Shown in pieces: positions 3,309 through 52,847 of a stretch of 52,847 nt of DNA. Source of the DNA: a virus (Duplodnaviria; Heunggongvirae; Uroviricota; Caudoviricetes); the IMG/VR virus record IMGVR_UViG_2663762646_000002; one strand, given 5' to 3'. The notes under the pieces were generated by a model. It worked only from the letters and a program-made list of their open reading frames with translations, was not told the origin of the DNA and did not search any database. Within the stretch, counting starts at the first letter, position 1. Every line of letters begins with the position of its first letter. A program made the translations under genes and the position numbers.

Positions 3309-3884
3309 CTACGGCAGTGCTGGCCATTCAATATCCTGTGCAGTTGACGTATCAACACGGTTCAGCAATACCCGATACTTTTTCCATGCTTCCAGCAACG
3401 AGATTTCTTCCTCCGTTGCAATTTCCAGATCTGCAGCATCCTGAAGCGGCGCAATATGCTCACTGGCTACCTGCATCAGGTTGTTTTTTGTTTCTTCCGC
3501 CTCCCGGATCCGGAACAGTTTTTCTGCTTCCGTATCCTTCACCCAGGCTGTGCCGTTCCACTTCTGAAACTCCCCTTCCGGCGATAACCAGGTAACATTT
3601 TCCGGTAACGGACCGAGTTCAGAAATAAATAACGCGTCGCCGGAAGCCACGTCATAAACCGTTTTACCCCGATGATCTTCAACGAGATGCCACGATGACT
3701 CATCACTGTTGAAAACAGCCACGAAGCCAGCCGGAATATCTGGCGGTGCAATATCGGTACTGTTTGCTGGCAGACCTGTATGAGGCGGAATATATGCATC
3801 ACCTTCACCAATAAATTCATTAGTTCCGGCCAGCAGATTATAAATTTTTATGGTCCGTGGTTGTTCACTCATTCTGAATGCCAT
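3309..3884 (-). CDS. tfaQ: tail fibre assembly protein (Tfa)
   Basis: 191 aa, [24 protein letters not shown]... matches Tfa proteins as recalled; start overlaps the stf stop. Confidence 0.85.
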
Positions 3885-6800
3885 TATGCAAGCCTCACAA
3901 TATAGTTAAATGCGATGTTTTTGACGGTGTTTTCCGCGTTACCAGCAGCGTTAACGGTGATGGTGTGTCCATGTGAACCAATCGCAACGGAGTGCGTATG
4001 AGCACCAATACCGACAGTATGTGCATGTGCGCCTGCGCTTGCAGCAGTGCCGGACAGCGAGTGGGTATGAGCACCATCTGATGATGTCTTCCCTGCATTA
4101 CGAGTCTGGCCACTACCGCTTGTTGTGCTCATAATCCCCGCGCTTAGATTTGAAATCGCGGTATAACCATTAGGGAAAATGCTCGTGTTCGTGCCACCAA
4201 ATGCACCGGAACTCTTGTGTTGGTGCGCACCGGCACTATTTGCGATCCCGCTAATACTATGGGTATGCGCCCCGGTGTTATTCGTGGATTTGGTTCCGTA
4301 ATCAAACGACGATGTGGTTTTCGTCCCCAAATCCGTACTGGATGCGCTGGCGCTGTGGGTGTGCGATTTAATGCCGTCCTGTTCCTGAGATAATACGGCC
4401 CGACCACTGGCGGGCTTGCCCTTAATCGTCCAGCCACGCATATCAGGGATCACGCCTGACGGATAAGCAACTGCAAGTTTCGGGTATGCAGATTTGTCAA
4501 AAGTCTGCCCCTGCATCAGGGCATAACCAGACGGAACGGTATCTGATGGCCACGGGATTGGTGCACCGACTGGATAAAACTCTGCAGGAGGATGAGCCGA
4601 GGTGTAAAGCTGCGCCCACGGCGACCAGTTTGCGTCGGTCGTATCCCGTCGTGAACGAATAAATGCCGGAGCATGAGCACCGCTTGTACCACTCCAGCCG
4701 ATGAGTAACTCACCTTCGCCAACGGCTGTCATCCCTTTCAGGTGAATGATATTTCCATACGCTGTTGGATATCCGTTGTTATACACCTCGTATAACTCAA
4801 GACCTGCTGCCCCCTGCGTATTGTCTGTCAGCGCGGTTACCCGACCTTTTGAAGCCAGATTAACTGATGATACTGCTGTTCCACCTGACGGTAACGCCCC
4901 GATCTCTGATGCCGTTGGCTTATTTCTGGAGTTATAGTCCCTTCGCCAGCCAGGTGAATAATCTGTTCCGTGATTAATATAGGTAAACTGGGCGTTAGTT
5001 GTTCCACCACCAGTGGAGGTGGTCGGTGTGGTAATGCGGATCGTCATCGCTGACTTTATCCCCATTACTTCAATGACAGCTCCGGCGAGATGAATATTAC
5101 CGCAGTCAGTATCAGTAATGATTTTATTATTGCCATAAGACCAGGAACCCTTGCACATCCAGTATGGATGGTTAAATGCTCCCTGAGAATCCAGCCACTC
5201 GATAAACTGTGCAGTCGTCCAGTTTCCTGTTGTTGTGCTTACTGACCCACCGAAGGCACGGCAGGCACCAATATTTTTCGTAAAGGTATCTTTGCCAGGG
5301 ATATCCGCACCGTTCTGATCTTTCTGCAGACGTTTCTCAGCATTGTCATTGGCTGCTTTTACTGCCTTTGGTGTCGCGGCAAGCGTTTCAGACGTGCTGT
5401 TGGTCGCGCTGCTTAGCTGGATTATCCCTTTCTGTGCTGTCGTTGCATCCTGTGCGGTGTATTTCCCGTTAGCCAGGTCATACGCGGCCTTAACGGCTTT
5501 TGGTGTTGCCGCCAGTGACTCGGAAGTGCTGTTAGTCGCACTACTGAGCTGTACTATCCCCTTTTTCGTCGTGCTCGCATCCTCAAGCGCCACGGCGGAT
5601 GCAATATCCTCTGCCCGTTTTGCTGCTGTCTCGGCGCGCGTTGCTGCGGATTCTGCCGTACTTTTGCTCTGAGCTGCCGCCGTCGCACTGCCAGCAGCCT
5701 CTGTCGCCTTCGTGGATGCCGTCGTGGCGCTGCTCTTCGCTGCTGACGCTTGTCTGGTCGCCTCATCTTTTGAAGCAGACGCCGATGATGCCGATGACGC
5801 CGCCGAACTGGCTGACGATGCGGCAGCCGTTTTTGAGGATTCTGCGCTGGTTTCCGACGCTTTCGCGTTCGTTTCGGATGTCTTCGCTGCGGAAGCAGAC
5901 CTCGCTGCTGCGCTGGCCTGTTCAGTGGCTTCGCCAGCCTTCGTTGTGGCTGTTGAAGCAGACGATGCGGCGCTTTCTGCCGATTTTCCGGCGGCGGTGG
6001 CACTGGCTGAGGCCTGCCCGGCACTTGTTGACGCTGCACTGGCAGACGACGCAGCCGCTGTTTTTGAGCCTGCCGCAGCCGAGGCGCTCTGTCCCGCTGC
6101 CGTTTCAGAAGACCTGGCGTTCGTCTCTGACGTTTTTGCCGCCTTCGCGGAATTTCCTGCCGCTGTTGCCGAGGAAGCTGCGCTACTGGCGCTCGAGGAT
6201 GCGTTCGTTTCTGATGATTTTGCCGCCTCTTTTGAAGCCGACGCATCCCGGGCTGAGGTGGCAGCTTCTGACGCTTTCGTGGTCGCGGTGGATGCAGAAG
6301 TGGCTGCTGATTGTTGTGACGCTGCAGCATTCGTTTCTGACGTTTTCGCGGCACTGGCACTGGTAGCTGCCGCGCTTTTTGAGGACTCTGCAGCGGCAGC
6401 ACTTTTTGATGCTTCAGTGGCCTTTGTTGATGCCGTTCCTGCGCTGGAAGACGCTGACTGAGCCGACGAAGCGGCCTGTCCGGCTGACGTGCTGGCTGCG
6501 CGTGCTGAGCCTGCAGCATCAGTCGCATGGGTTGCCGCCTCACGGGCAGATGTGCCGGCATCGCCGGCTGACTTCTTCGCGGCTGCCGTGTTCTGTGCCA
6601 CCGCGGACGCGTTACGCGCCACCTCTTCCACCATCAGTTCAAAACGGCGCAGAGCCTCCGGACGGGCATCATCCTCCGTCATGGCACCGAGAAAATCATT
6701 CAGCGTACCGGGTCGGGAATCTTCATACACGGTGATGGTCCCGGCATGTGACGGCGGGAATCCTTCCACCAACAGAATAACGCTGTACTGACCGTACTCA

Positions 6801-6958
6801 ACGTCCATGCTGTAACGCCCGGCTTCATCCGGATTTTCTGAGGCCAGCGTGTTCACCACCACCGCGGTGCTGTTACGTTTTGCTTTCAGCTGGATTGTGC
6901 AGTTCTGTACCGGTTTTCCTGTGCCGTCTTTCAGTACACCTGAAATCTTTACTGCCAT
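3884..6958 (-). CDS. stf: side tail fibre protein Stf, with extended Ala/Ser/Thr-rich shaft
   Basis: N-terminus [26 protein letters not shown]... and C-terminus with GAHTHS repeats ending [22 protein letters not shown] match lambda Stf as recalled; start set at MAVKIS (third codon of the tracked 1026-aa ORF). Confidence 0.85.
5340..6600. repeat. low-complexity Ala/Ser/Thr-rich repeat block inside stf, including a tandem ~40-aa duplication
   Basis: Repetitive GC-rich DNA producing long spurious ORFs in several frames; duplicated motif KGI(V/I)[11 protein letters not shown](S/T)[11 protein letters not shown] in the Stf translation. Confidence 0.7.
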
Positions 6959-6968
6959 ATTCACCCCA

Positions 6969-6996
6969 CAAAAAAGCCCGCCTGAACAGGCGGGCT
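6969..6996 (-). terminator. rho-independent terminator downstream of lom
   Basis: Minus strand AGCCCGCC-TGTTCA-GGCGGGCT hairpin followed by a T run (plus-strand aaaaaagcccgcctgaacaggcgggct). Confidence 0.6.
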
Positions 6997-29696: not shown

Positions 29697-30157
29697 TCAC
29701 GACGAATAACCTGACCGTAACAGTTATTTGAACGAATGCGGCAATCGCGTCCGCCATCCTTAATCCACCAGCGAATCGCTTCGCATGCACCTTTACGATC
29801 ACCAGCATTCAGCCGCTTATAAAACGTCGACGGGAAACACTTACCGGGGCCAATGTTATAGGGACAAAATGACGCGATACCCGCTTTTTGTGGTTCGGTC
29901 AGTGGTACTTTAATATTGCGCTCCACCCATGCCAGCGCCTTATCACGCTCAATGGCGTTGACCTGGTCGCATTTTTCCTTCGACAGTTTCATATTGGGAA
30001 AAACGGTTTTTCCATCCACCACTGTGGCACCCCGACAGATGGTCCATATGCCAGAACCATCGCGGTATGCCATTGTGTGGTTACCTTCTTTTTCGTCCAG
30101 AAACTGGTCAAGTATCTGAGGAGCAGATGATCCTACCCACGTAATATGGACACAGGC

Positions 30158-31024
30158 CTAAGCGAGGTTCTTGTTTTCAAATTGTTCCGGACTGAGGCCG
30201 CCACACCAACTGTGCCGCCGCCACCGATTGTAATCACATTCGATATAATTAAACACCGTTGCCCGCATTATTTCCCGGCTGATAAAGTGTTCTCCATGGA
30301 TACATTCCACTTTCAGCGAATGAAAGAAGCTTTCCACGCAGGCATTATCGTAGCAGCAACCTTTTGCGCTCATACTTCCACGCAGATTATGCCGCTTCAG
30401 TTGCGCCTGATAATCTGCTGAACAGTACTGGCCTCCACGGTCCGTGTGAACGATAACGTTCCGGGGCCTCTTACGCCGCCACAGCGCCATCTGCAGGGCA
30501 TCGCAGGCCAGTTGCGCCGTCATGCGTGGCGACATTGACCAGCCAATAACGGCACGTGACCACAGGTCAATGACCACTGCCAGATACAGCCAGCCTTCAT
30601 CTGTACGTAAGTACGTGATGTCTCCTGCCCACTTCTGGTTCGGGCCACTGGCGTAAAAATCCTGCTCCAACAGATTTTCTGACACAGGCAGGCCGTGTGC
30701 GCGGTAGCTGACCGGGCTGAACTTCCGGGAGGCCTTTGCCCTCAGTCCCTGACGGCGCAGGCTTGCCGCCACGGTTTTTACGTTAAAGGGGTAACCCTGA
30801 GCACGCAGTTCATCCGTCAGGCGTGGGGCACCGTAACGCTGTTTTGACCGGGTAAAAGCCGCGAGGACAACGCTGTCGCAGTGTTGGCGGAACTGCTGAC
30901 GCGTGCTTATCCTTGTCCGCCGCTGACACCACGTATACCAGCCGCTGCGGGCCACCCGGAGCACGCGGCACATTGCTTTGATGCTGAACTCAGCCTGATG
31001 TTTTTCAATAAAGACATACTTCAT
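30158..31024 (-). CDS. insF: IS3 transposase OrfB (InsF), DDE/rve domain
   Basis: 288 aa, matches IS3 InsF as recalled. Confidence 0.9.
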
Positions 31025-31320
31025 TTCAGGCGCTTCGCGAAGTATGTCGCGGCCTTTTGGAGGATAGCCAGCTCTTCATCCCGTTCTGCCAGCTGGCGTT
31101 TGAGACGTGCAATCTCGGTAGACATCTCCAGTTCACGTTCAGAAGACGTCTGCTGATTTTGCTGTTTACTGCGCCAGTTGTAGAGTTGTGATTCATACAG
31201 GCTGAGTTCACGGGCTGCGGCAGTAACACCGATGCGTTCAGCAAGCTTCAGGGCTTCACTGCGAAATTCAGGCGAATGCTGTTTACGGGGTTTTTTACTG
31301 GTTGATACTGTTTTTGTCAT
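31021..31320 (-). CDS. insE: IS3 transposase OrfA (InsE), HTH
   Basis: 99 aa from [31 protein letters not shown]...; overlaps orfB as expected for IS3-family frameshifting. Confidence 0.9.
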
Positions 31321-31448
31321 GTGAGTCACCTCTGACTGAGAGTTTACTCACTTAGCCGCGTGTCCACTATTGCTGGGTAAGATCACAGATGCGCCAGCAC
31401 CAATCAGCGCCAGAACGGCAGCCGACAGGCCGTATCTGATTTTTGTGT

Positions 31449-40396: not shown

Positions 40397-41159
40397 TATT
40401 CCTCCTACAATCAATGTGCAATTACATTTAAACACACCTCAATTTGGCCGGACATATAAATATCTAAACCAGAAAAAATCACTTACATAGCGTTACAAAC
40501 TCTTTAGTCTAAAGGTTCATCGTAAAACATTCCCCATACTTATCAGTCCGTTCCGCGCCAGGTAGCTCATTGCCTTATCTGGCAACCTGTAATCAGGTTT
40601 CCGCTTTTTCAGTTGGCTGGTCGTTTAACCGACATAGTTAATCCATTAATCTAGTTGCCGGATGTTGGTGGATTTTCGCGTTTTAGTTGTTCATAAAAGT
40701 GCACAGCTTTAACCAGTTCTTCTGATGTAACTGGGACTGGTGAGGCAGTGAATAAGGCCTGAATTTGATAGTTCGGCCTGTCGTTACAATCCTCTTTTTT
40801 CGGTACATATTTCCAGTCACCAGACCACTACTTCCCCTGAAAGTCCGTAACGCCTTTTTTCACGTAGCGATATCGCCATGCCACTGGTTTTGCTTGCCCC
40901 GCCGTTTCATGCCCTTCCTGATAATTAATCTCGCTCATTCATCGCCCCACTCATCACAATATGCTTCGACCGGAGTTTTTCCCGCTTCATAGTCATCACG
41001 CTAGGATTCGACATCAGCAGCACTTCCACCGCGTAACTCACCATAGTCCATTAATAGTTCATCCCGCTCTTCAAAACTGTAAGCGTCGTCTCAGCACCGT
41101 CTGGCAGATCCTGAAATTCCTGAGAGAATAGTGGACACCAAATATGGTGGACGCAATCC

Positions 41160-41564
41160 ATGAAATCATTAACCGCAGTGCGTAAAAAAAGCCCTAATTA
41201 TCCCGTTGAGTTCAAAATCAAAATGGTTGAACTCTCGCATCGACCAGAGATCTCCGTAGCGCAACTCGCTCGTGAGCATGGGATCAACGATAATTTGCTG
41301 TTCAAGTGGCGCCAGTACTGGCGCGAAGGAAAACTACGTCCTCCTTCAACAACAGAAAACAACGTGCCTGAGCTGCTCCCGATAACACTTGATGCCGAAG
41401 ATGTTGTCCCTACAACCTCCCCCCGGTCACAACCTGTAGCTGCTGCGACACCTGAATCACTCAATATCAGCTGTGAAGTGACGTTCCGGCACGGATCACT
41501 CCGTCTGAATGGTGCCATCAGCGAAAATATCCTGAACCTGCTGATACGGGAGCTCAAACGTTGA
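41160..41564 (+). CDS. IS66-family accessory protein TnpA
   Basis: 134 aa, first ORF of the IS66 unit. Confidence 0.85.
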   Translation: MKSLTAVRKKSPNYPVEFKIKMVELSHRPEISVAQLAREHGINDNLLFKWRQYWREGKLRPPSTTENNVPELLPITLDAEDVVPTTSPRSQPVAAATPESLNISCEVTFRHGSLRLNGAISENILNLLIRELKR

Positions 41565-41908
41565 TCCCATTACCATCAGGGACAAAGATCTGGCTGGTCG
41601 CTGGCATCACCGATATGAGAAACGGCTTCAACGGCCTGGCGGCAAAGGTGCAGACGACGCTGAAAGACGATCCGATGTCAGGTCACGTTTTTATCTTCCG
41701 TGGGCGTAATGGCAGTCAGGTAAAGCTCCTCTGGTCTACCGGCGATGGACTGTGTCTGCTGACCAAACGGCTGGAGCGCGGCCGCTTCGCCTGGCCGTCA
41801 GCCCGGGATGGCAAAGTGTTCCTCACACCGGCACAGCTGGCGATGCTGCTGGAAGGTATCGACTGGCGGCAGCCTAAAAGACTGCTTACGTCCCTGACTA
41901 TGTTGTAA
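41561..41908 (+). CDS. IS66-family accessory protein TnpB
   Basis: 115 aa; start is a TTG overlapping the tnpA stop. Confidence 0.85.
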   Translation: MIPLPSGTKIWLVAGITDMRNGFNGLAAKVQTTLKDDPMSGHVFIFRGRNGSQVKLLWSTGDGLCLLTKRLERGRFAWPSARDGKVFLTPAQLAMLLEGIDWRQPKRLLTSLTML

Positions 41909-41956
41909 GCCTCTTTATCCTGGTCGACGCTGAATGAGCCTGGTAATATACCCGGT

Positions 41957-43492
41957 ATGAGCAGCTCACTTCCTGACGATATCAATGCACTGAAACGTCT
42001 CCTTGCCGAACAGGAGGCGCTGAACCGTGCCCTGCAGGAAAAGCTGAACGAGCGTGAACGCGAAATAGACCATCTGCAGGCACAGCTGGATAAGCTGCGC
42101 CGGATGAACTTCGGCAGCCGCTCGGAAAAAGTCTCCCGTCGTATCGCACAGATGGAAGCTGACCTGAAGGCACTTCAGAAAGAAAGTGATACCCTTACCG
42201 GTCGGGTTGACGACCCGGCCGTGCAGCGCCCGCTGCGTCAAACCCGCACCCGCAAACCGTTCCCCGAATCACTCCCCCGCGATGAAAAACGGCTGCTGCC
42301 GGCAGCGTCATGCTGCCCGGAATGTGGAGGCTCGCTGAGCTATCTGGGTGAGGATGCCGCCGAACAGCTGGAGCTGATGCGCAGCGCCTTCCGGGTTATC
42401 CGGACTGTACGTGAAAAGCATGCCTGTACTCAGTGCGATGCCATCGTGCAGGCCCCCGCGCCTTCACGGCCCATCGAGCGGGGTATCGCAGGACCGGGGC
42501 TGCTGGCCCGCGTGCTGATCTCAAAGTATGCAGAGCACACCCCGCTGTACCGCCAGTCTGAAATGTACGGCCGCCAGGGCGTGGAGCTGAGTCGTTCACT
42601 GCTGTCGGGCTGGGTGGATGCATGCTGCCGGCTACTGTCACCGCTGGAAGAAGCGCTTCAGGACTATGTGCTGACTGACGGTAAGCTCCATGCTGATGAC
42701 ACGCCTGTCCCGGTGCTGTTGCCAGGCAATAAGAAAACGAAGACCGGGCGGTTATGGACCTACGTTCGTGACGACCGTAACGCCGGGTCAACGCTGGCGC
42801 CGGCGGTGTGGTTCGCTTACAGCCCGGACAGAAAAGGCATCCATCCGCAGACCCATCTTGCGGGGTTCAGTGGTGTACTGCAGGCGGATGCATACGCCGG
42901 GTTCAACGAGCTGTACCGGGATGGCCGGATAACGGAAGCCGCCTGTTGGGCTCACGCCCGCCGTAAAATCCACGATGTGCACGTTCGCACCCCGTCAGCC
43001 CTGACGGAGGAAGCGCTGAAACGGATCGGCGAACTGTACGCCATCGAGGCAGAGATAAGGGGAATGACGGCGGAGCAGCGCCTTGCCGAACGTCAGTTGA
43101 AAACGAAACCGCTGCTGAAATCCCTGGAAAGCTGGCTGCGTGAAAAGATGAAAACCCTGTCGCGACACTCAGAACTGGCGAAAGCGTTCGCATACGCCCT
43201 GAACCAGTGGCCGGCGCTGACGTACTATGCAGATGATGGCTGGGCTGAGGCGGACAATAACATCGCTGAAAATGCGTTGCGGATGGTCAGTCTGGGCCGC
43301 AAAAACTACCTGTTCTTCGGTTCGGATCATGGAGGAGAGCGGGGAGCGCTGCTGTACAGCCTGATCGGGACGTGCAAACTGAACGGAGTGGAGCCAGAAA
43401 GCTACCTCCGCTATGTCCTTGACGTCATAGCCGACTGGCCGATAAACCGGGTCGGCGAACTGCTCCCCCTGGCGCGTAGCACTGCCGACTGA
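41957..43492 (+). CDS. IS66-family transposase TnpC
   Basis: 511 aa with leucine-zipper-like N-terminus, CxxC zinc motif (CCPECGG...CTQCD) and DDE region. Confidence 0.9.
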
Positions 43493-44011
43493 ATAACACA
43501 TCCCCGTCAATACGGTTCTTGCTGCACGCTTACTCAAAACTGATGTTATATTTAGCTGAACAAAAATCAGCCACTTTGTTCTTCCTCATCGTCTTTTATT
43601 TCGTGGTATGAGTAATTGCAGTAGTTAAAGAAAATTTCTTATGCTCCGTCATGAATTTCCTCAGGTGTTGCGTCATCGTCCACTTCGAATACATCCTCAA
43701 AATCTCCACCAGCTATTCCCGTTTCAATAATAATTTTGAACTTTCGCATTTCACTACCGCCCTTTCGGGCGGCCTCCTGATGTTCTGAGGGTGCAGAAAT
43801 CCATCCGGTTAAGGATTAAATTTTATTTACAGAACTGAATTTAATTATTCAGATATACGTATCTGTAGCCTTACGAATCTACTCACTGGATGCCTCTTTC
43901 ATAAAAATAATCCAGTGGGTTTTATCGTTTTTTCCCTGTTCGTTGACAGATAACAGGTTTTCTGTCTGTCAGTGCCAGAATCTGGCTTACCGGTATTTGC
44001 GTTTCATTCCA

Positions 44012-46592: not shown

Positions 46593-47000
46593 ATGGAAAC
46601 AAAAAATTTAACTATCGGCGAACGCATCAGGTATCGTCGGAAAAACCTCAAACACACCCAAAGGTCTCTTGCTAAAGCCCTGAAAATCTCCCATGTGTCT
46701 GTATCACAATGGGAACGGGGTGATAGTGAACCTACAGGGAAGAACCTTTTTGCCCTCAGCAAAGTATTGCAATGCTCACCAACATGGATTCTATTTGGCG
46801 ATGAAGACAAGCAACCAACACCACCTGTTGAGAAGCCAGTTGCCTTATCCCCCAAAGAACTAGAGCTCCTTGAGCTGTTTAATGCACTGCCAGAATCAGA
46901 ACAGGATACCCAGCTCGCCGAAATGCGAGCTCGAGTAAAAAACTTCAATAAACTCTTTGAAGAATTACTAAAAGCCCGTCAGCGGACAAATAAAAGATAA
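46593..47000 (+). CDS. dicA: cI-like HTH repressor DicA
   Basis: 135 aa, METKNLTIGERIRYRRKNLKHTQRSLAKALKISHVSVSQWERG... (XRE-type HTH). Confidence 0.9.
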   Translation: METKNLTIGERIRYRRKNLKHTQRSLAKALKISHVSVSQWERGDSEPTGKNLFALSKVLQCSPTWILFGDEDKQPTPPVEKPVALSPKELELLELFNALPESEQDTQLAEMRARVKNFNKLFEELLKARQRTNKR

Positions 47001-47700: not shown

Positions 47701-48040
47701 TAGCTAATCAACAAAGCTAAGGTTAGTAATTAAGGAGTTCTCCACGGGTGAGGTGGAGTGCGTGCGCCGGACACGGGTGCGCATCCGGAACTGACAGTTT
47801 ACTGAAAGGATATTTCCCTGAAAAGTCAGACCATAACGCGAAAGCGCACGGCGAGGTAGCTGGTTCATAGATAGCCTGTCGTTAAATTTTCGTCGACCGT
47901 GCGCTTCCGGTTGTGGCAACCCGCGAAATGGCGCGGCGGTAAGTATGGCGGGGTTATTCCTTCCCCGTTGAGGACACCGGGTTGTCAGGTTGACCATACG
48001 CTTAAGTGACAACCCCGCTGCAACGCCCTCTGTTATCAAT

Positions 48041-48097
48041 TTTCTGGTGACGTTTGGCGGTATCAGTTTTACTCCGTGACTGCTCTGCCGCCCTTTT
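48041..48097 (+). ncRNA. dicF: DicF small regulatory RNA (ftsZ/xylR/pykA-targeting sRNA)
   Basis: TTTCTGGTGACGTTTGGCGGTATCAGTTTTACTCCGTGACTGCTCTGCCGCCCTTTTT matches DicF as recalled, including the terminal GGCGG...GCCGCC hairpin and U tail. Confidence 0.9.
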
Positions 48098-48267
48098 TAA
48101 AGTGAATTTTGTGATGTGGTGAATGCGGCTGAGCGCACGCGGAACAGTTAAAACCAAAAACAGTGTTATGGGTGGATTCTCTGTATCCGGCGTTAATTGT
48201 TAACTAGTTAACGTCACCTGGAGGCACCAGGCACTGCATCACAAAATTCATTGTTGAGGACGCGATA

Positions 48268-48456
48268 ATGAAAACGTTATTACCAAACGTTAATACGTCT
48301 GAAGGTTGTTTTGAAATTGGTGTCACTATCAGTAACCCAGTATTTACTGAAGATGCCATTAACAAGAGAAAACAAGAACGGGAGCTATTAAATAAAATAT
48401 GCATTGTTTCAATGCTGGCTCGTTTACGTCTGATGCCAAAAGGATGTGCACAATGA
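48268..48456 (+). CDS. dicB: cell-division inhibitor DicB
   Basis: 62 aa, MKTLLPNVNTSEGCFEIGVTISNPVFTEDAINKRKQERELLNKICIVSMLARLRLMPKGCAQ; GAGGA SD. Confidence 0.9.
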   Translation: MKTLLPNVNTSEGCFEIGVTISNPVFTEDAINKRKQERELLNKICIVSMLARLRLMPKGCAQ

Positions 48457-48644
48457 ATTCAGCATTTGTGCTTGTTCTGACAGTTTTTCTTGTTTCCGGA
48501 GAGCCAGTTGATATTGCAGTCAGTGTTCACAGGACAATGCAGGAGTGTATGACTGCAGCAACCGAACAGAAAATTCCCGGTAACTGTTACCCGGTCGATA
48601 AAGTTATTCACCAGGATAATATCGAAATCCCGGCAGGTCTTTAA
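48453..48644 (+). CDS. ydfD: small membrane lysis-associated protein YdfD
   Basis: 63 aa from MNSAFVLVLTVFLVSGEPVDIAVSVH...; start overlaps the dicB stop (ATGA). Confidence 0.8.
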   Translation: MNSAFVLVLTVFLVSGEPVDIAVSVHRTMQECMTAATEQKIPGNCYPVDKVIHQDNIEIPAGL

Positions 48645-48736: not shown

Positions 48737-51208
48737 ATGAGTAAAGTCTTTATTTGCGCCGCTATTCCTGACGAACTGGCAACAAGGGAAGAAGGCGCTG
48801 TGGCTGTAGCCACAGCCATTGAAGCTGGCGACGAACGCCGTGCTCGAGCAAAATTTCACTGGCAATTCCTGGAACATTATCCGGCTGCTCAGGACTGCGC
48901 TTATAAATTTATTGTCTGCGAGGATAAACCTGGCATACCCCGCCCTGCCCTCGATTCATGGGATGCTGAATATATGCAGGAAAACCGCTGGGATGAGGAG
49001 TCTGCTTCTTTTGTCCCGGTTGAGACTGAATCCGATCCGATGAACGTCACTTTTGACAAGCTGGCCCCTGAAGTACAGAACGCTGTCATGGTTAAGTTCG
49101 ACACATGTGAAAACATCACCGTTGATATGGTTATTAGCGCACAGGAATTGTTGCAGGAAGACATGGCAACATTCGACGGACATATCGTTGAAGCGTTGAT
49201 GAAAATGCCAGAAGTTAACGCCATGTATCCGGAGCTTAAGTTGCACGCCATTGGGTGGGTTAAGCATAAATGTATTCCTGGTGCTAAATGGCCCGAAATT
49301 CAGGCAGAGATGCGCATCTGGAAAAAACGTCGCGAAGGTGAACGCAAGGAAACCGGAAAATACACGTCTGTTGTTGATCTCGCCCGCGCCAGAGCCAATC
49401 AACAGTACACTGAAAATTCAACAGGAAAAATCAGCCCGGTCATTGCTGCCATTCATCGCGAATACAAGCAGACATGGAAAACACTGGATGACGAACTGGC
49501 CTACGCTCTCTGGCCTAGTGATGTGGATGCCGGAAACATTGACGGCAGCATCCATCGCTGGGCAAAAAAAGAAGTTATCGACAACGACCGCGAAGACTGG
49601 AAGCGTATCTCGGCATCAATGCGCAAACAGCCTGATGCCCTTCGCTACGACCGCCAAACTATTTTTGGCCTTGTCCGTGAGCGTCCGATCGACATTCACA
49701 AAGATCCCGTAGCACTGAACAAATATATCTGCGAATACCTGACGACAAAGGGCGTGTTTGAGAATGAAGAAACAGACCTGGGCACTGTTGATGTTCTCCA
49801 GTCATCAGAAACACAAACTGATGCAGTGGAAACTGAGGTATCTGATATCCCAAAAAATGAAACCGCGCCGGAAGCTGAACCATCTGTAGAGCGTGAGGGG
49901 CCGTTCTATTTCCTCTTCGCAGATAAGGACGGAGAAAAATACGGTCGCGCAAACAAACTCTCTGGTCTGGATAAGGCACTGGCTGCTGGCGCCACTGAAA
50001 TCACAAAAGAAGAATATTTTGCCCGAAAAAATGGCACATACACGGGCTTACCGCAAAATGTAGATACCGCTGAAGATTCAGAACAACCAGAGCCGATAAA
50101 AGTTACCGCTGACGAAGTAAACAAAATTATGCAGGCAGCCAATATCAGCCAGCCTGACGCCGATAAGTTGCTTGCTGCATCACGTGGTGAATTTGTTGAA
50201 GGGATTAGTGACCCGAATGATCCGAAATGGGTTAAGGGGCTCCAGACCCGCGATTCTGTGAACCAGAACCAGCATGAATCGGAACGGAACTACCAAAAAG
50301 CGGAACAAAACAGTCCAAATGCGTTACAAAACGAGCCAGAAACGAAACAGCCTGAACCAGTAGCGCAACAGGAAGTGGAAAAAGTCTGCACCGCCTGCGG
50401 TCAGACCGGCGGCGGCAACTGCCCTGATTGTGGCGCGGTGATGGGCGACGCAACATACCAAGAAACATTCGATGAAGAGTATCAGGTTGAAGTTCAGGAA
50501 GATGATCCGGAGGAAATGGAAGGCGCTGAACATCCACACAAGGAGAACACTGGCGGCAATCAGCATCACAATAGCGATAATGAAACTGGCGAGACGGCAG
50601 ATCACCCAATTAAGGTGAACGGTCATCACGAAATCACATCCACCAGCAGGACGTGTGACCATCTAATGATCGACCTTGAAACCATGGGAAAAAATCCTGA
50701 TGCCCCGATCATCTCAATAGGTGCAATATTTTTCGATCCGCAAACCGGAGATATGGGACCGGAATTTAGTAAGACTATCGATCTGGAAACTGCTGGCGGA
50801 GTCATTGATCGTGACGTCATTAAAAGGTGGCTGAAGCAATCACGTGAAGCGCAGTCTGCCATTATGACCGATGAAATCCCGTTAGATGATGCACTGTTAC
50901 AATTGCGGGAATTTATCGACGAAAACTCCGGTGAATTTTTTGTTCAGGTTTGGGGAAATGGAGCCAACTTCGACAACACGATTTTGCGCCGTTCATACGA
51001 ACGGCAGGGGATCCCCTGCCCGTGGCGTTACTACAACGATCGCGATGTACGCACAATCGTTGAGCTGGGGAAAGCCATAGACTTCGATGCCAGAACGGCT
51101 ATTCCATTCGAAGGTGAGCGCCATAATGCACTTGATGACGCCCGTTACCAGGCAAAATACGTTTCAGTTATCTGGCAAAAACTGATCCCGAGTCAGGCTG
51201 ATTCTTAA
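48737..51208 (+). CDS. ydfE: large prophage protein with C-terminal DEDDh 3'-5' exonuclease domain (full-length YdfE-like)
   Basis: 823 aa, GAGGT SD; zinc ribbon CTACGQTGGGNCPDCG, acidic/His-rich linker, C-terminal motifs DLET, WGNGANFDNTIL and H-x4-D (HNALDD); N-terminus resembles K-12 YdfE as recalled. Confidence 0.7.
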   Translation: MSKVFICAAIPDELATREEGAVAVATAIEAGDERRARAKFHWQFLEHYPAAQDCAYKFIVCEDKPGIPRPALDSWDAEYMQENRWDEESASFVPVETESDPMNVTFDKLAPEVQNAVMVKFDTCENITVDMVISAQELLQEDMATFDGHIVEALMKMPEVNAMYPELKLHAIGWVKHKCIPGAKWPEIQAEMRIWKKRREGERKETGKYTSVVDLARARANQQYTENSTGKISPVIAAIHREYKQTWKTLDDELAYALWPSDVDAGNIDGSIHRWAKKEVIDNDREDWKRISASMRKQPDALRYDRQTIFGLVRERPIDIHKDPVALNKYICEYLTTKGVFENEETDLGTVDVLQSSETQTDAVETEVSDIPKNETAPEAEPSVEREGPFYFLFADKDGEKYGRANKLSGLDKALAAGATEITKEEYFARKNGTYTGLPQNVDTAEDSEQPEPIKVTADEVNKIMQAANISQPDADKLLAASRGEFVEGISDPNDPKWVKGLQTRDSVNQNQHESERNYQKAEQNSPNALQNEPETKQPEPVAQQEVEKVCTACGQTGGGNCPDCGAVMGDATYQETFDEEYQVEVQEDDPEEMEGAEHPHKENTGGNQHHNSDNETGETADHPIKVNGHHEITSTSRTCDHLMIDLETMGKNPDAPIISIGAIFFDPQTGDMGPEFSKTIDLETAGGVIDRDVIKRWLKQSREAQSAIMTDEIPLDDALLQLREFIDENSGEFFVQVWGNGANFDNTILRRSYERQGIPCPWRYYNDRDVRTIVELGKAIDFDARTAIPFEGERHNALDDARYQAKYVSVIWQKLIPSQADS

Positions 51209-51280: not shown

Positions 51281-51532
51281 ATGAGCGAAGTAATCATGAT
51301 TGTCTCTCCCGGCAAATGGGTATCCGAAGAGCAGTTAATTGCGCTGAAAGGAATAAAAAAAGGTACGTTAAAAAAGGCCCGGGAAAAATCGTTTATGGAA
51401 GGAAGGGAATATAAGCATGTCGCTCATGACGGTATGCCATGGGATAACAGTCCATGCTTTTACAACCTGGAAGAAATTGATCGCTGGATTGAGCGCCAGG
51501 CATCAGCGAGACCAAGACGTCATCTTACTTGA
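51281..51532 (+). CDS. excisionase-like DNA-binding protein (Xis)
   Basis: 83 aa (an alternative ATG exists at 51296), directly upstream of int; GREYKH-type motif resembling lambda Xis. Confidence 0.6.
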   Translation: MSEVIMIVSPGKWVSEEQLIALKGIKKGTLKKAREKSFMEGREYKHVAHDGMPWDNSPCFYNLEEIDRWIERQASARPRRHLT

Positions 51533-51566
51533 CTAAAAGCCACACTAACTAATGAGAGAAGTTGAA

Positions 51567-52847
51567 ATGAAATATCCGACAGGCGTGGAAAACCATGGAG
51601 GGAAATTACGTATCTGGTTTGTTTATAAAGACGTAAGAGTCAGGGAAAATCTGGGGGTTCCTGACACAGCAAAAAACAGGCGCGTTGCAGGTGAACTACG
51701 CTCCTCTGTTTGTTACGCAATAAAAACTGGTGTTTTCGACTATGCAAAACAGTTTCCCTCCTCACGCAATCTGGAAAAATTTGGTGAGGCCCGACAAGAT
51801 TTAACCATAAAAGAACTGGCTGAAAAATTTCTGGCACTGAAAGAAACTGAAGTCGCCAAAACATCACTCAACACATACCGTGCCGTCATCAAAAATATCC
51901 TGAGCATAATCGGTGAAAAAAATCTTGCCTCATCGATTAATAAAGAAAAATTACTGGAGGTTCGTAAAGAGTTACTGACTGGATACCAGATCCCCAAAAG
52001 TAACTATATTGTTACACAACCAGGGAGATCGGCTGTAACTGTAAATAATTACATGACAAATCTTAACGCCGTGTTCCAGTTTGGTGTTGATAACGGTTAC
52101 CTGGCAGATAATCCGTTTAAGGGGATCTCGCCATTAAAGGAATCAAGAACCATTCCGGATCCTCTTTCGCGGGAAGAATTTATCCGTCTTATCGATGCGT
52201 GCAGAAATCAGCAAGCAAAAAATTTATGGTGTGTTTCTGTTTATACTGGAGTTCGCCCTGGTGAGCTGTGTGCACTTGGATGGGAGGACATAGATCTGAA
52301 AAATGGAACAATGATGATCAGGAGAAATTTAGCAAAAGACCGTTTCACGGTACCAAAAACACAGGCGGGAACCAATCGGGTCATTCATCTTATTAAGCCA
52401 GCAATCGACGCTCTCCGGAGTCAGATGACATTAACGAGACTGAGCAAAGAGCATATCATTGATGTTCACCTCAGAGAGTATGGCAGAACAGAAAAACAAA
52501 AATGCACCTTTGTTTTTCAACCTGAAGTGTCAGCGAGAGTAAAAAATTATGGTGACCATTTTACCGTTGACTCAATAAGGCAGATGTGGGACGCAGCGAT
52601 AAAACGTGCCGGACTCCGCCATCGAAAATCATATCAGTCGAGACATACTTATGCCTGCTGGTCGCTGACAGCTGGTGCTAACCCGGCATTTATAGCAAAC
52701 CAGATGGGCCATGCAGATGCGCAAATGGTATTTCAGGTATACGGAAAATGGATGTCTGAAAACAATAATGCACAGGTAGCTTTGTTAAATACACAGTTAA
52801 GCGAGTTTGCCCCAACCATGCCCCATAACGAAGCAATGAAAAATTAA
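51567..52847 (+). CDS. intQ: tyrosine site-specific integrase (lambda Int family), full length
   Basis: About 426 aa from MKYPTGVENHGGKLRIWF... (an upstream ATG exists at 51552); arm-binding N-terminus and C-terminal catalytic region with R...HxxR...Y residues; stop is the last codon of the window. Confidence 0.85.
   Translation: MKYPTGVENHGGKLRIWFVYKDVRVRENLGVPDTAKNRRVAGELRSSVCYAIKTGVFDYAKQFPSSRNLEKFGEARQDLTIKELAEKFLALKETEVAKTSLNTYRAVIKNILSIIGEKNLASSINKEKLLEVRKELLTGYQIPKSNYIVTQPGRSAVTVNNYMTNLNAVFQFGVDNGYLADNPFKGISPLKESRTIPDPLSREEFIRLIDACRNQQAKNLWCVSVYTGVRPGELCALGWEDIDLKNGTMMIRRNLAKDRFTVPKTQAGTNRVIHLIKPAIDALRSQMTLTRLSKEHIIDVHLREYGRTEKQKCTFVFQPEVSARVKNYGDHFTVDSIRQMWDAAIKRAGLRHRKSYQSRHTYACWSLTAGANPAFIANQMGHADAQMVFQVYGKWMSENNNAQVALLNTQLSEFAPTMPHNEAMKN

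Follow-up and report, generated by a model that had tools for sequence, protein, structure and literature searches.

What does the intact form of the prophage gene ydfE encode, and is its product part of a recombination system? The question is raised by a 52,847-nt stretch of tailed-phage DNA (IMG/VR record IMGVR_UViG_2663762646_000002), referred to here at its full length as the window, in which a complete open reading frame (ORF) at 48737..51208 on the plus strand runs from an ATG start through 823 codons to a stop. An original prediction, made from the sequence alone, had proposed a full-length, uninterrupted YdfE-like protein with a C-terminal DEDDh exonuclease domain, and this description of the ORF holds. 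As an object the gene is already known, annotated and among the commonest prophage genes of E. coli; a literature search for ydfE together with exonuclease, the one pairing of terms searched, returned nothing relevant. Our analysis indicates that intact YdfE is probably a RecE-family scaffold joined to a DexA-like 3'-5' DNA exonuclease, which takes the place of the RecE nuclease and RecT, and that it probably works as a solo nuclease and not as one half of a recombinase.

A DexA-like DEDDh head at the C-terminus

Residues 641-823 (50657..51205, plus strand) form a DEDDh 3'-5' exonuclease domain of the DexA/Rv2179c-like type. The match to PF16473 over residues 642-813 covers profile positions 2-177 of 177 (E=3.2e-63, 213.1 bits against a cutoff of 27), and the three motifs that had been predicted for the C-terminal ~180 residues were all located, with DLET at 646-649, WGNGANFDNTIL at 739-750 and HNALDDARY at 796-804. 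The catalytic residues D646, E648, D746, H796 and D801 are invariant among 22 fused and standalone homologues, and they align exactly with D7, E9, D119, H186 and D191 of T4 DexA. The original prediction would have been refuted by substituted catalytic residues or by a full-length RecE ending in a PD-(D/E)xK domain; neither was found, as the five residues do not vary, PF12684 has no match in the 823-aa protein, where the DEDDh domain occupies its position, and the score against the RecE equivalog model lies below its cutoff. In the AlphaFold2 (AF2) model the domain adopts an RNase H-like DEDD fold with block-mean predicted local distance difference test (pLDDT) values of ~70-96, mostly above 85. 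The structure search proposed for this domain was run with Foldseek and returned DexA first (8KEL, E=2.9e-11), followed by RNase T, 3'hExo, Orn and Cap18, and the only PDB sequences matched by the profile were 8KEL and 8KEN (E=5e-15), which represent T4 DexA and its S87A/D90A mutant (PMC12153337). When the window allele was compared with the alleles of phages Evi and mEp460, the ratio of nonsynonymous to synonymous substitution (dN/dS) of the domain was 0.18. Exonucleases of the DEDDh family degrade in the 3'-5' direction. Judged by its residues and its modelled fold, the C-terminal head appears to be a catalytically intact DEDDh domain, and metal-dependent 3'-5' DNA exonuclease activity is predicted for it.

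T4 DexA (PDB 8KEL, 8KEN) is the closest relative of solved structure, both in fold and in sequence, although the identity is 20-25% and DexA is a standalone protein of 227 aa with extra loops. In the alignment, W152 of DexA corresponds to Y766 and S87 to P714, D90 is retained as D717, and D169 falls on F785, which is flanked by D784 and D786 in 'AIDFDAR', a poorly aligning loop. DexA shows a temperature-driven dimer/tetramer switch, and EcD, its homologue in E. coli, degrades the T4 genome and DNA containing 5-hydroxymethylcytosine (5hmC) and does not degrade unmodified double-stranded DNA (dsDNA); plasmid-expressed EcD protects cells against T4, a strategy for which its authors coined the name 'HREX' (PMC12153337). 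We recovered the EcD sequence via the published cloning primer (HAK9828821.1, 189 aa, with Ala78 as the paper states). EcD is a prophage-borne PF16473 DEDDh protein that is 36-38% identical to residues 644-821 and only 27% identical to DexA, so that EcD and the window domain are closer to each other than either is to DexA. In contrast to the window protein, which carries Tyr and Asp at the W152 and D90 positions and a 640-aa scaffold, EcD is a standalone protein of 189 aa with Trp and Ala78 at these positions. By sequence comparison, the window protein is thus a member of the DexA/EcD family without the exact EcD signature. EcD itself lies in a P2-like prophage (6401-6970 of the IMG/VR locus L038; also in loci L017, L022, L032, L033 and L035), in the order Cox ... 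EcD - Dam methylase ... gpA, and the integrase gene there is divergent. Because this is a prophage early operon, the native role of EcD may be a phage function, though it was published as bacterial defence.

A scaffold homologous to RecE

The sequence comparisons indicate that the entire non-catalytic region (~630 aa) is homologous to RecE. By BLASTP, residues 262-627 match residues 278-592 of K-12 RecE (E=3e-61), with 39% identity in the middle region of the scaffold and ~80% identity over residues 473-627, zinc ribbon and acidic linker included. The RecE equivalog of NCBIfam (NF007259) matches residues 246-623 at model positions 271-600 of 877, with 281.6 bits against a cutoff of 1269. The far N-terminus has no BLAST similarity to RecE and no direct PF06630 match; in profile-profile comparison it was related to RecE with 98.4% probability before the shared tail and mosaics were removed, and HHalign still aligned YdfE 16-197 with RecE 13-214 (95.7%, E=8.7e-9) when the shared segment and mosaic proteins had been removed. 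At the DNA level the only homology to Rac recE lies at 50161..50603 (plus strand), where codons 475-623 are 78% identical in nucleotides to recE codons 455-589. The homology to RecE ends at about residue 627, inside the acidic His-rich linker, which is a domain boundary because the PD-(D/E)xK domain of K-12 RecE (PF12684, residues 615-850) starts at about 615. The N-terminal ~450 residues had been described as a region with no motif that could be named; this can be refined, since the region is homologous to RecE throughout (BLASTP, HHalign) and is covered by the Pfam families YdfE_N and YdfE_C. The comparison of the whole protein with Rac RecE and K-12 ydfE, also proposed beforehand, gave a RecE-homologous scaffold whose residues 1-256 are identical in K-12 ydfE.

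The scaffold is built of small modules, all on the plus strand. Domain N1 (48737..49036, residues 1-100) is a small alpha/beta fold and a remote homologue of the RecE N-terminus, and it is followed by two helical domains, N2 (49049..49414, residues 105-226; AF2 pLDDT mostly above 90 and lower at both ends; dN/dS 0.09-0.13) and N3 (49469..49756, residues 245-340; dN/dS 0.11), in the latter of which BLAST homology to RecE (278-~350) starts. A disordered acidic linker (49757..49897, residues 341-387; pLDDT below 50; dN/dS 0.6-0.67) leads to N4, a small beta/alpha unit (49898..50032, residues 388-432; pLDDT above 90; dN/dS 0.03-0.05). Next comes a conserved box at 50147..50251 (residues 471-505, DKLLAASRGEFVEGISDPNDPKWVKG...; dN/dS 0.11-0.26), which is common to RecE-type and YdfE-type proteins and marks the left edge of a recombination-prone segment that both types have; its GISDPxDxKW motif occurs in 22 of 48 long representatives and reads GISDPNDPKW in the window. 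The zinc-ribbon-like element at 50387..50431 (C551, C554, C562 and C565; CTACGQTGGGNCPDCG at 551-566) is conserved in RecE. The original prediction had seen this ribbon and the acidic His-rich linker correctly and had misread the spacing, which is CxxC-x7-CxxC and not x9. Considered as a feature that might define the family, the ribbon was rejected: it is optional, being present in 7 of the 48 long representatives, with either nuclease head, and its AF2 confidence is low. The acidic His-rich linker (50447..50656, residues 571-640) is disordered, contains 19 D/E, 3 K/R and 7 His residues, and has a dN/dS of 0.7-0.86.

Taken by module, dN/dS was 0.03-0.13 in the four folded scaffold domains, 0.11-0.26 in the conserved box and 0.18-0.19 in the DEDDh domain, with 0.5-0.9 in the disordered linkers, and the folded modules are under purifying selection. 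Between modules of one allele pair dS spreads more than ten-fold, which points to recombination inside the ydfE-like gene.

Exchange of nuclease heads and the link with RecT

Using residues 1-640 as an exhaustive HMMER query against 1.84 billion representative proteins, we obtained 247 matches, and by these sequence matches the RecE/YdfE scaffold family is narrow and modular. When the long matches were sorted by module queries, all four combinations of scaffold and head were present, namely YdfE-N with DEDDh (the window protein), RecE-N with DEDDh (P0128, P0142, P0242), YdfE-N with PD-(D/E)xK (P0131, P0198, P0225) and RecE-N with PD-(D/E)xK (RecE). In 10 further relatives with unassigned C-termini a Pfam scan found no nuclease domain, and such head-less relatives match the 'RecE-2' proteins described by Zheng et al. 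2025 (PMC12315714).

Species-level loci were collected with the GISDPxDxKW box as a degenerate DNA pattern in one genome per species, and the matches were classified locally. Among loci with downstream DNA, a RecT-family gene follows the PD-(D/E)xK head in 18 of 18 and the DEDDh head in none of 7, and both N-terminal types occur among the loci scored. The Qin-type loci of IMG/VR give the same picture: 78 of the 80 retrieved carry the DEDDh head, RecT follows in 0 of these 78, and in 57 of the 80 xis and/or int lie nearby. For example, a Rac-like prophage with a RecE-N + DEDDh gene has the order kilR-ydaE-gene-xis-int without recT, and YdfE-N + PD-(D/E)xK genes have RecT next. In Salmonella and E. 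coli, DEDDh homologues that stand alone (183-190 aa, 56-69% identity) are also encoded directly before xis-int. In a Salmonella enterica prophage (loci L008-L010; genes 3743-4852 and 5001-5570) a standalone 189-aa DEDDh gene comes right after a DndB-family gene and before xis-int. Because head type predicts the RecT neighbour across both N-terminal types, '[PD-(D/E)xK domain + recT]' and '[DEDDh domain]' are, on this comparative evidence, alternative cassettes swapped at a conserved linker. RecT is missing from the DEDDh loci family-wide, so its absence in the window is the rule and not a local accident.

RecE and the window protein can now be compared directly. Their scaffolds are homologous over the whole length, with the conserved box, zinc ribbon and acidic linker ~80% identical, and both are encoded by a large distal early-left gene that lies downstream of a kil gene, which is kilR in Rac and dicB in the Qin type, and upstream of xis-int. 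Unlike the YdfE-like protein, which ends in a DEDDh domain and has no recT, RecE ends in a PD-(D/E)xK 5'-3' dsDNA exonuclease and always has recT next to it. The label 'exodeoxyribonuclease VIII', which phage records often give to the gene, is a misnomer because of the equivalog score (282 bits against a cutoff of 1269), the DEDDh head and the missing recT. A two-component recombinase would couple a 5'-3' exonuclease with an adjacent annealase; here the nuclease belongs to a 3'-5' family, and an annealase was found neither in the window, nor in phage PhiR42_1, nor at the DEDDh loci.

In one E. coli genome (GCA_002972015.1; 737-3127 of locus L011) three closely spaced ORFs (456, 157 and 183 aa) take the place of the single gene; they cover residues 1-453, 465-591 and 644-822 and are separated at predicted disordered linkers. 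This variant means either that the modules can exist as separate polypeptides or that an early stage of decay has been caught. M464 and M644, the start points in the split variant, were considered as internal translation starts in the window and set aside, as M644 has no convincing Shine-Dalgarno sequence upstream.

Genomic setting, occurrence and annotation

The gene lies, as had been predicted, between dicB-ydfD and xis/int. Upstream are the dicA product DicA (46593-47000) and the dicF-dicB-ydfD block of the early-left operon (48042..48644, plus strand), which comprises the DicF RNA (48042-48093, plus strand), DicB (48268-48456, plus strand) and YdfD/DUF1482 (48453-48644, plus strand). Directly downstream follows an excisionase (DUF1233; 51281-51532, plus strand) and then a tyrosine integrase (51552-52847, plus strand), so that xis and int come next; the search for a RecT-family ORF found none in the entire window, which agrees with the prediction that no annealase is adjacent. 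Between dicA and the ydfE-like gene a simple consensus scan found no sigma70-like promoter on the plus strand and a crude scan found no convincing terminator, and for this reason the gene presumably belongs, as its distal member, to the dicF-dicB-ydfD operon that DicA represses. The DicF region is overlapped by a pair of antisense ORFs of 111 aa and 51 aa (47704-48157, minus strand), and PhiR42_1 has similar 'hypothetical proteins' annotated there. These ORFs lie opposite the dicF-dicB transcript and are probably spurious.

In K-12 MG1655 the corresponding gene (b1577, Qin prophage) is annotated as a pseudogene abutting IS2E, an insertion sequence (IS), after codon 256, which bears out the statement in the original prediction that K-12 has a short fragment cut by an IS. 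The K-12 gene is 100% identical to residues 1-256, diverges beyond them and has the same dicF-dicB-ydfD neighbours; in contrast to the window, K-12 has the IS2E cut, is missing the scaffold beyond residue 256 along with the DEDDh domain and xis, and carries intQ as a pseudogene too.

Of 5426 complete E. coli genomes, 4800 have a Megablast match to the ydfE-like gene, and in 3537 the match extends over at least 80% of it. The gene is present at 98.7-99.7% identity in phages PhiR42_1 (from ECOR13), HannyBb and Tritos (98.7% in Tritos) and at 87-92% in mEp460, Evi and the PPompW phages. Genes at 99.7% identity in E. coli genomes and phages are annotated 'exonuclease' or '3'-5' exonuclease', PHROG 2082 ('exonuclease') matches the 823-aa protein end to end, and the precomputed Pfam families of its homologues are PF27430 (YdfE_N), PF27432 (YdfE_C) and PF16473. 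The allele of PPompW_EH1846 (51-2518 of locus L167) is annotated as frameshifted by a deletion, and some lineages therefore hold inactivated copies. Except at two IS insertions, 47.7 kb of the 52.8-kb window align collinearly with the inducible phage PhiR42_1, for which no annealase is annotated. The insertions are an IS3-family insertion at 30130-31385, with minus-strand ORFs at 31021-31329 and 30158-31024 carrying HTH_Tnp_1 and rve domains, and an IS66-family insertion at 41080-43533, with three plus-strand ORFs (HTH_Tnp_1, TnpB_IS66 and DDE_Tnp_IS66); the former is absent from PhiR42_1 and the latter is absent from it at the same position.

Chi sites

A Chi octamer (GCTGGTGG) lies on the minus strand at 50640..50647, in codon 635 at the junction of linker and DEDDh domain. 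The window contains five Chi sites on the minus strand, which is the strand of the structural genes, and two on the plus strand, with ~0.6 expected per strand; the other minus-strand sites are at 29765, 35594, 35651 and 43706. The idea that Chi at this junction drives head swapping in general was considered and rejected, since neither recE nor a RecE-N + DEDDh chimera (L005) has the junction site; the alleles of Evi and mEp460 share it. In Zheng et al. 2025, Tritos is the prototype of a small Chi-rich lambdoid class that has a nuclease and lacks an annealase, a single-strand binding protein and an anti-RecBCD function, and such nuclease-only phages are proposed to use host RecBCD (PMC12315714). 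The Chi enrichment in the window fits this class without anti-RecBCD functions (PMC12315714).

Discussion

The reading that we prefer builds on the observed architecture, scaffold homology, intact catalytic residues and fold, purifying selection, reciprocal head swapping and head-RecT link. In the mechanism we propose, induction would lead to transcription of the gene from its distal position in the dicF-dicB-ydfD operon, which DicA represses. The scaffold of ~630 residues, with its four small folded domains, disordered acidic linkers, GISDPNDPKW box and optional zinc ribbon, would then bring the nuclease to the same DNA or protein target as the RecE scaffold, where the head would remove nucleotides from DNA 3' ends in a metal-dependent manner. 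Since the DEDDh head comes without RecT, such a protein would be a solo nuclease rather than half of an exonuclease/annealase recombinase. Two roles seem most plausible for it, by analogy and by genomic context: it may trim or destroy the DNA of competitor phages, modified DNA or host DNA, as DexA and EcD do, or it may condition DNA ends for phages whose recombination depends on Chi and on RecBCD of the host (the 'Tritos class').

The first of these roles overlaps with an explanation in which the protein is an HREX-type prophage anti-phage nuclease that selectively degrades DNA with 5hmC or a related modification when T-even-like phages superinfect, which by analogy with EcD is possible, though we consider it doubtful. 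The PF16473 membership and 36-38% identity that it has in common with the prophage-borne EcD speak for it, as do the ability of EcD to degrade the T4 genome, spare unmodified dsDNA and protect cells (PMC12153337), the aromatic Y766 at the W152 position of DexA, the acidic residues flanking the D169 position, and the accessory slot adjoining xis/int, where standalone homologues also sit. However, expression in the lysogen is doubtful because no promoter of its own was detected for the gene, which lies in the DicA-repressed early operon; moreover, W152 is not kept as Trp, D90 is kept where EcD has Ala, and EcD has nothing that corresponds to the RecE-like scaffold of 640 aa. PADLOC gave only a weak generic match ('Cas-associated DEDDh'), and no known defence system is therefore assigned. 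A nuclease arm of a recombination (Rec) module, analogous to lambda Exo or RecE and working with host RecA/RecBCD or an unrecognised annealase, is unlikely. It would agree with the early-left position near int, the RecE-homologous scaffold, the increase in linear-linear recombination conferred by the scaffold of full-length RecE (PMC11610958) and the Chi enrichment (5 on one strand against 0.6 expected); moreover, Zheng et al. 2025 count DnaQ-like nucleases as members of such modules and class Tritos as nuclease-only (PMC12315714). Against this, 3'-5' polarity would leave 5' overhangs, which suit neither annealing of the RecT/Beta type nor RecA 3'-end invasion, 3'-5' exonucleases usually inhibit recombination according to the same paper (PMC12315714), no annealase was found at the 7 species-level DEDDh loci, the 78 DEDDh-headed IMG/VR replicates, PhiR42_1 or the window, and the head swap takes RecT away along with the PD-(D/E)xK domain.

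Quite improbable is an RNA exonuclease, acting like Rv2179c or Orn on host or phage RNA or nanoRNA, or trimming the 3' ends of RNA phages in the manner of TONDO. In its favour, the Pfam family takes its name from Rv2179c, an exoribonuclease of M. tuberculosis, and RNase T, Orn, ERI and 3'hExo are among the strong neighbours in structure; in addition, the work on TONDO reports protection against MS2 and Qbeta by prophage DEDDh exonucleases that carry unrelated auxiliary domains (PMC13344964). But both of the closest characterised relatives, DexA and EcD, act on DNA, and the scaffold is shared with the dsDNA exonuclease RecE. As described in that article, TONDOs resemble the window protein as mobile-element DEDDh exonucleases joined to variable auxiliary domains with a defence role, whereas they target the 3' untranslated regions of RNA phages and were chosen as ISG20-like proteins of <500 aa (PMC13344964). 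A decaying, non-functional prophage remnant is strongly disfavoured. The K-12 copy is a truncated pseudogene, PPompW alleles are annotated as frameshifted, and split or deleted variants exist; yet the gene is covered to at least 80% in 3537 of the 5426 complete genomes and occurs in the inducible phages PhiR42_1, Tritos and mEp460, dN/dS is 0.03-0.19 in every folded module, and the catalytic residues are invariant.

Several points weigh against the view of YdfE as a RecE-family scaffold with a DNA-directed solo nuclease. The Pfam family of the head is named after an exoribonuclease, and its next structural neighbours after DexA are RNase T, Orn and 3'hExo, so that the substrate may be RNA. The residues with which DexA reads 5hmC are only loosely kept, and the tetramer residue D90 is kept as D717, unlike Ala78 of EcD, which is the only close relative with experimental data. 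The structure search proposed for the N-terminal scaffold was carried out and gave no informative relative in the PDB (N2 had no PDB match), and the RecE N-terminal region has no known function (PMC11610958), so that 'delivery' by the scaffold is pure inference. The RecT association counts are not phylogenetically independent, with shared ancestry left uncorrected, and membership in the operon rests on a simple consensus scan.

A broader proposal, which we put forward tentatively and consider rather unlikely, is that the RecE/YdfE scaffold is a general delivery platform with interchangeable heads and one conserved target. A DNA end might be the target, or else a protein of host replication or repair, and the head might be PD-(D/E)xK with RecT, a DexA-like DEDDh domain or none. 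In its DEDDh version the platform would be an induction-made nuclease and an alternative strategy, which might destroy modified competitor DNA or shape ends for the use of RecBCD by Chi-rich phages without an annealase. With respect to published work, Zheng et al. 2025 likewise describe 3'-5' DnaQ-like nucleases in lambdoid early-left regions and RecE relatives without a nuclease, whereas neither the joining of such a nuclease to a RecE scaffold nor the mutual exclusion with a RecT cassette is described in the main text, as far as it is accessible (PMC12315714).

In conclusion, the RecE/YdfE family offers a natural domain-swap experiment, in which one RecE-type scaffold is combined with nucleases of opposite polarity and RecT travels only with the 5'-3' head. 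Annotations of the ydfE-like gene as 'exodeoxyribonuclease VIII' are wrong. The swaps suggest that the scaffold serves a purpose for which neither the RecE nuclease nor RecT is needed, which bears on the promotion of linear-linear recombination by full-length RecE in recombineering. They also connect a ubiquitous prophage gene, in a way that can be tested, with the modification-dependent exonucleases DexA and EcD that were described recently. If the scaffold is indeed a general platform, the 3'-5' head would not be a degenerate substitute, and the family would give a handle on the long-unknown N-terminal 600 residues of RecE.

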